Source: Escherichia coli | GTDB lineage: Bacteria > Pseudomonadota > Gammaproteobacteria > Enterobacterales > Enterobacteriaceae | Assembly: GCF_048403405.1 (NCBI RefSeq) | Contig: NZ_CP183129.1 | Length of the DNA: 64,000 nucleotides | Strand: one strand, 5' to 3' | Shown: piece by piece, positions 11,028 to 11,660 of the stretch | Layout: each line of letters opens with the position of its first letter | How positions within the stretch are numbered: position 1 is the first letter of the stretch | Notes under the pieces: generated by a model | What the model saw: the letters and a program-made list of their open reading frames with translations, nothing else | Database searches by the model: none | Told to the model about the DNA's origin: nothing | Program-made: the position numbers and the translations under genes

Positions 11028-11660
11028 ATGGGAAAGATTAAAATTGTAGTTTCAGATCAGCAGCCGTTTATGATTGATGGGATAATTGGATTTCTCGGAC
11101 ATTATCCCGATTTATATGAGGTTGTTGGGGGCTATAAAGATCTGAAGAAAGCTATAGCGGAGTGTAACAAATCTGCAGCCCAAATATTTATTTTAGGAGA
11201 ATTTGCAGGTGGAATGATGGGGTCCGAACTCATTAAATGGGTTAAATCGCATAAAATAGATGCTCATATTATTACATTTGTAGCAAAAATGCCGTATATT
11301 GATTCAATAAAATTGCTTGAAGCCGGTGCAAAAGGATGCGTATGGAAAACCAGTCACCCGGCAAAACTAAATCGCGCTATTGATTCGATTAGTAATGGTT
11401 ACACTTATTTTGATAGTGTACACATGGATTGTGAAAAAATATCTTCAAGATATTCCTCTGATAATCAACTTACAAATCGTGAGTCTGAAATACTACAACT
11501 CATAGCTGATGGAAAAACAAACAAAGAAATCGCTAATTTCTTGCAGTTAAGCAGGAAAACAGTCGAAACTCATAGACTCAATATCATGAAGAAATTAGAT
11601 GTTCACAGTGGTATCGAGTTGATCAAAACAGCTTTACGTATGGGTGTTTGCACTATATAA
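11028..11660 (+). CDS. ygeK: LuxR-family regulator with degenerate receiver-like N-terminal domain
   Basis: C-terminal LuxR HTH ([39 protein letters not shown]); N-terminal domain starts [15 protein letters not shown] 11028 with AGGA upstream (ORF track starts at 10995). Confidence 0.7.

Follow-up and report, generated by a model that had tools for sequence, protein, structure and literature searches.

How is a response regulator controlled when the aspartate that should receive its phosphoryl group is missing? The question is raised by ygeK (synonym etrB), a 633-bp gene for a protein of 210 residues plus the stop codon, on the plus strand at 11028-11660 of a 64,000-nt stretch of Escherichia coli DNA (contig NZ_CP183129.1, hereafter the window, to which positions refer unless stated otherwise) that holds ETT2, a type III secretion island of E. 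coli. In identical genomes, RefSeq has a coding sequence (CDS) with exactly these coordinates, WP_000516283.1, under the product name 'LuxR C-terminal-related transcriptional regulator'. A preliminary description of this DNA had proposed that the N-terminal domain is laid out like a receiver but lacks the acceptor Asp, which would make the protein a phosphorylation-independent, possibly constitutively active regulator. The analysis presented here argues that YgeK is, judging from sequence comparisons, a NarL/FixJ-type factor devoid of canonical phosphorylation chemistry, that this is an old trait of a clade linked to type III secretion systems (T3SS), and that its pseudo-receiver is probably fixed in an active-like state.

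The answer matters because EtrB activates the locus of enterocyte effacement (LEE) virulence island in enterohaemorrhagic E. coli (EHEC), while in avian pathogenic E. coli (APEC) ygeK influences adhesion, biofilm and flagella. Reviews equate ygeK/etrB with ECs3712 and b2855/b2856, and describe its product as an SsrB-like regulator, or SsrB homologue, of the NarL family. According to the same literature, etrB in O157:H7 is monocistronic, autoregulated and transcriptionally activated by QseA, and EtrB, which binds the regulatory region of ler, acts as an activator of LEE genes and as a repressor of etrA and eivF. In APEC, deletion of ygeK is reported to lower flagellation, motility, adhesion and biofilm formation. 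The missing Asp is not mentioned in the passages of YgeK/EtrB papers that were searched, which include neither the primary EtrB paper nor the original comparative paper on ETT2, so that an earlier mention in print is possible.

A receiver fold without its phosphorylation site

The receiver-like nature of the N-terminal domain, which the preliminary description had recognised by eye, is borne out by profile matches and by structure prediction. The Pfam Response_reg model PF00072 covers the whole domain, if marginally (31.0 bits, the gathering score being 30.2). A hidden Markov model (HMM) derived from the receiver domains of 40 canonical NarL/FixJ proteins aligns end to end with YgeK residues 1-129, at 50.8 bits. 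AlphaFold2, given a 60-sequence alignment, confidently predicts a CheY-like (βα)5 fold, with a predicted local distance difference test score (pLDDT) of about 90 for the receiver-like part. In this model, strands and helices alternate in the expected order: β1 (4-9), α1 (13-23), β2 (30-36), α2 (39-48), β3 (53-56), α3 (66-73), β4 (80-85), α4 (93-99), β5 (101-106) and α5 (111-122). The C-terminal part is a helix-turn-helix (HTH) domain of the kind found in NarL/FixJ proteins, matched by GerE PF00196 with an E value of 5e-21 (score of 74 bits; cutoff, 23.5), and its four helices span residues 150-160, 165-172, 176-189 and 195-204 in the model. Foldseek superposes the receiver-like domain on the RcsB receiver (6zii) with a root-mean-square deviation of 2.5-2.8 Å over about 131 alignment columns, and the top full-length structural matches of the model are RcsB, LiaR, EvgA, VraR, DesR and NarL. 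The top matches among solved DNA-binding domains, found by phmmer, are EsrB (8e-17) and SsrB (7e-11).

Within this predicted scaffold, three independent kinds of alignment agree that the residue at the acceptor position is Gly57. In phmmer pairwise alignments, it lies opposite the Asp that closes β3 in DesR, VraR/LiaR and RcsB. The RcsB residue, Asp56 by chain count, is the known phosphorylation site of that protein, and the Asp residues of DesR and VraR/LiaR are likewise the phosphorylated ones. In MAFFT alignments, 39 out of the 40 canonical NarL/FixJ relatives have an Asp in the column of Gly57. The profile alignment and the structure prediction, which the preliminary description had put forward among the ways to check its reading, both agree: the 40-receiver HMM assigns, with high posterior probability, its Asp state to Gly57, the Pro found four residues later (D+4) to Gly61, the Ser/Thr state to Val85 and the Lys state to Lys107, while β3 of the AlphaFold2 model ends at residue 56, which puts Gly57 in the place of the acceptor Asp. 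The earlier statement that Gly/Glu stands where this Asp is expected is thus correct, with Gly57 being the residue at the site. Two other ways of placing the residues were considered. A shifted register that would supply an acceptor Asp was rejected, there being no Asp in the β3-α3 loop, and is also excluded by the conserved 'D' that relatives have five residues upstream. A reading of Glu58 as a D-to-E phosphomimic at the acceptor site has the register against it, since Glu58 is at D+1.

A column census comparing 20 YgeK-family members with the 40 canonical relatives shows how far the dismantling goes. The acceptor column holds Gly in 18 family members, Ser in one and Thr in one, but Asp in none (canonical, 39/40). 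In the acidic metal-binding pair, the first position (DD1) is Asp or Glu in all 20 (Asp10 in YgeK), but the second (DD2) is Arg, Lys or Gln in all 20 (Gln11 in YgeK), as against Asp in 39/40 canonical receivers. The Ser/Thr position is Val, Met, Ile or Phe and never Ser or Thr in the family (0/20 versus 40/40), and the D+4 Pro is likewise absent (0/20 versus 40/40). The receiver Lys has been kept throughout (20/20, and invariant in all alignments). Out of five catalytic residues, YgeK therefore keeps Asp10 and Lys107. The preliminary description had noted conserved Thr and Lys equivalents: this holds for Lys107 but not for the Thr, because Thr83, which the family does not conserve, lies at T-2, and the true column is that of Val85. 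The site is in fact more degraded than had been described, DD2 and the D+4 Pro having been lost as well.

Being a receiver by HMM and by fold, while lacking the acceptor, DD2 and Ser/Thr residues, YgeK belongs to the class of pseudo-receivers, or aspartate-less receivers (ALRs). Phosphorylation independence at the canonical site, as the preliminary description had suggested, is strongly supported by the alignments, because the losses of the acceptor Asp, of the second metal-binding Asp and of the Ser/Thr are fixed in 22 relatives and because no kinase gene accompanies the gene.

An old trait of a clade linked to type III secretion

The relatives were gathered in two ways. A word-indexed search returned 20 further full-length sequences with 48-63% identity. 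Their sources are E. fergusonii, E. marmotae, unclassified Escherichia and metagenomes, plus records that bear the label Yersinia enterocolitica. The next matches, set apart by a gap, are ordinary response regulators whose identity does not exceed 36%. Two members of greater distance, at 44% and 37-38% identity, came from an exhaustive search with HMMER. Not one of the 22 clade relatives (37-100% identity) has the acceptor Asp, and the two most distant, which read 'LGEF' and 'LGEL' at the site, have the same gene neighbourhood as YgeK.

What has replaced the canonical site is a signature of the family's own. Position D+1 is Glu in 19/20 and Asp in 1/20 members, and D+2 is invariably Phe (20/20), while T+1 is acidic in 19/20 (Ala in E. 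coli YgeK). Conserved aromatic residues also belong to it: Trp71 and Tyr84 (19/20 each) and Trp106 (20/20, versus 0/40 in canonical receivers). The C-terminal 'VCTI' is invariant too, Cys208, Thr209 and Ile210 being present in 20/20 members and Cys208 in 0/40 canonical relatives. Overall, about twenty residues that are rare or absent in canonical receivers are kept in at least 18 of the 20 family members, among which P13, F22, Y30, G57, E58, F59, W71, Y84, W106 and P111, and several of them are located at or beside active-site positions (D to D+2, T-1, K-1).

The receiver-like domain is maintained by purifying selection, because dN/dS (the ratio of nonsynonymous to synonymous divergence) is 0.08-0.35 wherever dS is unsaturated and hence measurable. 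It is at the same time faster-evolving than the HTH, as seen from dN values of 0.35-0.60 for the receiver-like domain and 0.15-0.27 for the HTH when the E. coli gene is compared with its distant relatives. Since the acceptor is missing in all 22 relatives, which have their own signature and, in the contexts examined, nearly always share a T3SS setting, its loss is, by these comparisons, an old and fixed trait of a T3SS-linked clade rather than decay. Recent decay into a pseudogene, which was considered for the window allele, is rejected by the clade-wide conservation and the dN/dS values, and is true of K-12 only.

Genomic context and strain alleles

The absence of an adjacent histidine kinase gene, which had been noted earlier, holds over a much larger distance, as none is annotated by RefSeq in about 89 kb covering the whole window. 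None was found either in the flanks of any homologue in the nine contexts examined. The company that the gene keeps is instead that of secretion genes. In eight of these nine contexts, which include chromosomes and plasmids alike, the ygeK-family gene is beside prgHIJK-orgAB and/or a lytic transglycosylase (SLT) gene and a HilA-like gene, the iagB-like SLT neighbour itself being present in 8/9. The orgA/orgB-upstream arrangement is repeated in homologous clusters, where a protein with Trans_reg_C and TPR domains is encoded at the position equivalent to that of ygeH.

The exception (1/9) is an E. marmotae plasmid on which the ygeK-family gene precedes flhDC and a cluster of flagellar genes. On this plasmid (CP188183.1, 152 kb, Rep3 replicon; L006 10001-10633 and 11953-12862, also L007), the gene for the family member P0028 is not part of a T3SS injectisome cluster; flhD-flhC and a complete flg cluster come about 1.3 kb downstream of it. 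Because of this proximity, and because flagellation and motility are reported to drop upon ygeK deletion in APEC, the YgeK family may be connected with how the flagellar master operon is controlled.

Within E. coli, ygeK was found in 3508 of 5426 complete genomes, with 95-100% nucleotide identity. The K-12 MG1655 allele (2994460-2995092 of that genome; L014 9461-10093) has a stop codon in place of Gln52, five codons ahead of the one for Gly57, and its annotation splits the locus into two pseudogenes, ygeK and ygeL. A 'YgeK' protein from K-12 surveys is therefore at best a 147-residue C-terminal fragment, and 147-residue products starting at Met63 have indeed been called in some genomes. In terms of cluster sizes, the full-length 210-residue form accounts for 3576 sequences versus 112 for the truncated form. 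The O157:H7 gene is intact and its product, which has Gly57, differs from the window protein by S66A and I69V only. Published EHEC work on EtrB therefore covers the same kind of protein.

What the pseudo-receiver might do

The constitutive activity evoked in the preliminary description is one reading only of this domain, which, with invariant residues of its own, could equally be a regulated sensor or a partner-binding module. The explanation that we find best, and regard as fairly probable in view of the alignments and the model, is that of a NarL/FixJ-type factor with a fixed pseudo-receiver. In detail, (i) the N-terminal domain has kept a CheY-like (βα)5 fold while dispensing with Asp phosphorylation chemistry, so that histidine kinases would not serve it as phosphoryl donors, (ii) the remodelled site, through Glu58 (D+1), Phe59, Trp71, Tyr84 and Trp106, and through the acidic T+1 and basic DD2 residues of most relatives, would fix the domain in one conformation, probably active-like and dimerisation-competent, (iii) the LuxR-type HTH would thereby be free to bind DNA and (iv) output would be governed mainly by protein abundance. 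The autoregulation of EtrB, its binding to the ler regulatory region and its control by QseA fit a regulator controlled through its level, and one of the recognised models for pseudo-receivers is that they are constitutively active and governed by availability (PMC12632262). If YgeK is indeed not phosphorylated at the canonical site, the hunt for a cognate kinase is pointless, and attention should turn to the transcriptional control of etrB and to the role of the conserved pseudo-receiver surface.

Two observations weigh against a fixed, abundance-controlled factor. The many family-invariant residues, including Cys46 and Cys208, could serve for binding a ligand, redox chemistry or contact with a partner. 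Moreover, cross-talk from BarA to YgeK has been stated, second-hand and with references 35-37 cited jointly, in a paper on Shewanella (PMC11045786). Going by the titles of these references, only a 2005 study by Yamamoto et al. could cover YgeK, and it is thus the likely source of the BarA-YgeK statement. Since codon 52 is a stop in the K-12 gene, it is ambiguous which protein was tested in that study.

The first of these observations is at the heart of the alternative that fares best, even though we consider it rather unlikely, in which the pseudo-receiver is a regulated input and DNA binding is switched by a small molecule, by redox chemistry via the cysteines or by a protein partner, such as another FixJ/NarL-type protein (e.g. 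RcsB) or a T3SS component. Direct regulation and regulation by protein partners are both recognised for pseudo-receivers (PMC12632262), and this alternative would account for the approximately twenty family-specific residues, several of them at or next to active-site positions, for the purifying selection on the domain and for the conservation of the cysteines. Cys46, encoded by codon 11163-11165 and located in helix α2, is found in 20/20 family members, and the codon of the equally invariant Cys208 is at 11649-11651; an input by redox or thiol modification through these residues is possible, to judge from their conservation. However, there is no recognised ligand-binding motif in the family (the W[FLM][TS]R of VpsT is absent), the contexts examined have no conserved partner gene beyond T3SS apparatus, SLT and HilA-like genes, and conservation alone cannot tell whether a surface is there for sensing, for dimer contacts or for structure. 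More doubtful still is the idea that the YgeK/EtrB clade is a kinase-free, T3SS-dedicated sensor family, in which a pocket comprising Gly57-Glu58-Phe59, Trp71, Tyr84 and Trp106, together with Cys46 and Cys208, may read a non-phosphoryl signal (ligand, redox or partner). In such a case, ETT2-like clusters, and possibly flhDC/flagella, would be coupled to host cues.

As compared to a pseudo-receiver that is fixed and controlled through its abundance, the two remaining alternatives are highly improbable. Phosphorylation at a non-canonical residue, or by cross-talk in which an unlinked kinase (BarA, for instance) acts on YgeK, could invoke the second-hand statement mentioned above (PMC11045786) and the retention of Asp10 and Lys107, but is very unlikely because YgeK has only two of five catalytic residues left, the acceptor and a direct metal binder being among those lost; the β3-α3 loop has no Asp to offer, and the K-12 gene of such surveys is a pseudogene. 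That the receiver-like domain is a functionless, decaying relic and that the HTH alone matters would agree with the higher N-terminal dN, the PF00072 threshold that is barely passed, the K-12 stop codon and the Met63 products, but hardly with a dN/dS well below 1, family-specific residues invariant over 37-100% identity, a confident predicted fold and the dominance of the 210-residue form.

Comparison with known systems

Aspartate-less pseudo-receivers are an already known class, representing roughly 4-6% of receiver-like domains (PMC4395418, Maule et al. 2015; PMC12632262, Bourret et al. 2025), of which YgeK is a further member. Like other ALRs, it is a receiver by HMM and (βα)5 fold that has lost the acceptor Asp and other catalytic residues. 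It also shares with them the loss of DD2 with retention of DD1, and the acidic gains in the β3-α3 and β4-α4 loops (PMC4395418, PMC12632262). It differs in having Gly at the acceptor position, where the commonest residue in ALRs is Glu, the Glu of YgeK coming one residue later (D+1), and in that its clade is tied to T3SS clusters that resemble ETT2 or pathogenicity island 1 of Salmonella (SPI-1). The name EtrB does not occur in the main text of PMC12632262, the search covering this one name and this one paper. The general phenomenon being well known, the gain is incremental and at the level of annotation of a known regulator, but it adds a well-defined, syntenic, T3SS-linked Gly-Glu-Phe clade to a class of domains whose mechanisms are poorly understood.

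SsrB (Salmonella SPI-2) and EsrB (Edwardsiella) share with YgeK the architecture of a receiver followed by a LuxR-type HTH, and the control of T3SS genes. SsrB has its acceptor Asp56 and a cognate kinase, SsrA, whereas YgeK has Gly57 and no kinase, and is encoded in an SPI-1-like rather than SPI-2-like cluster. The best NCBIfam model for YgeK is PRK15369 (NF011896), which is the SsrB model in CDD, and the score of 138.3 bits falls short of the equivalog cutoff of 242. Orthology to SsrB was rejected in view of this score, of the SPI-1-like cluster and of the lack of an SsrA-type kinase gene in the annotation of the island and its flanks. RcsB, LiaR/VraR, DesR, EvgA and NarL are the closest to YgeK among full-length solved structures and in sequence. 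These have a full catalytic set and are phosphorylated, and the printed alignments have Asp where YgeK has Gly57.

Also comparable are LuxR-type regulators with a receiver-like domain that do not rely on canonical phosphorylation, such as VpsT, which responds to cyclic diguanosine monophosphate (c-di-GMP), SecR, which is RcsB-like (PMC13199381), and BldM and WhiI (PMC4125116). YgeK has a genomic context unlike theirs and no known heterodimer partner. VpsT is among the structural matches of YgeK, with a sequence identity of only 16-19%, and VpsT-like binding of c-di-GMP was rejected, a regular-expression scan having found no W[F/L/M][T/S]R in the 20 family members.

Two side observations were made among the sequences collected. 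An unrelated NarL/FixJ-type protein, P0110 ('VAIIGWVLPGLNG', 'ADPH'), has Gly in the acceptor column and keeps the Pro at D+4, and looks like an independent Asp-to-Gly pseudo-receiver. Six predicted proteins of 2854-7703 residues (P0083, P0084, P0088, P0089, P0095 and P0099) have 6-14 separate matches each to the YgeK HTH, and may be tandem LuxR-type HTH arrays, or artefacts of assembly or gene calling.

The ygeK locus

Table 1. Coordinates of ygeK, of the parts of its product and of neighbouring genes in the window
Feature	Position	Strand	Basis
ygeK/etrB CDS, NarL/FixJ-type ETT2 regulator	11028..11660	+	RefSeq WP_000516283.1; homologue starts; reviews
Pseudo-receiver (aspartate-less receiver) domain, residues 1-130	11028..11417	+	PF00072, own receiver HMM, AlphaFold2
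Flexible interdomain linker, residues 131-146	11418..11465	+	AlphaFold2 pLDDT <50 for residues 132-146
LuxR/GerE-type HTH and family-invariant tail ...GVCTI (Cys208)	11466..11657	+	PF00196
Asp10-Gln11 codons, in place of the acidic DD metal-binding pair	11055..11060	+	Column census
Gly57-Glu58-Phe59 codons, family-defining GEF, with Gly57 (11196-11198) at the acceptor position	11196..11204	+	phmmer, MAFFT, HMM
Val85 codon, receiver Ser/Thr position	11280..11282	+	Census, HMM
Lys107 codon, conserved receiver lysine kept, preceded by Trp106	11346..11348	+	All alignments
orgA/orgB-like genes, end of the prgH-K/orgAB operon, directly upstream of ygeK	9575..10805	+	RefSeq, open reading frames
iagB-like lytic transglycosylase (SLT) gene, convergent syntenic partner	11679..12182	-	Open reading frame list, RefSeq
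ygeH, HilA-family regulator, conserved neighbour	12652..14028	-	Open reading frame list, RefSeq

In the window, ygeK comes after prgH-like, needle, prgJ/K-like and orgA/orgB-like genes, and is convergent with the iagB-like SLT gene, beyond which are ygeI and then the hilA-like ygeH (Table 1). A longer open reading frame starting at an ATG at 10995 was rejected as the start of the gene, because the alignments with homologues start at the Met at 11028, which RefSeq uses as well. The stop codons of ygeK and of the SLT gene are separated by a gap of 18 bp, with an inverted repeat (GGCTTTAG...CTAAAGCC) overlapping the SLT gene at its 3' end (11661-11700). No terminator was called at 11661-11700 by a consensus scan, and a promoter/terminator scan around ygeK gave nothing above chance.

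The ETT2 island is near-complete in the MS 69-1 record, the exceptions being two genes in the 1066221-1068043 region (about 1280-3102 in the window), where RefSeq annotates a partial SpaN/EivJ-family gene and a frameshifted YscQ/HrcQ-family gene. Going by these two annotations, the ETT2 apparatus of this strain may be non-functional although the regulator is intact. Partial or complete ETT2-like (SPI-1-like) clusters with a YgeK-like gene are also present on plasmid-like contigs, with neighbours that include a Rep3 replication gene (L011/L012 4204-12862) and a TraI relaxase gene (L013 34-13223).
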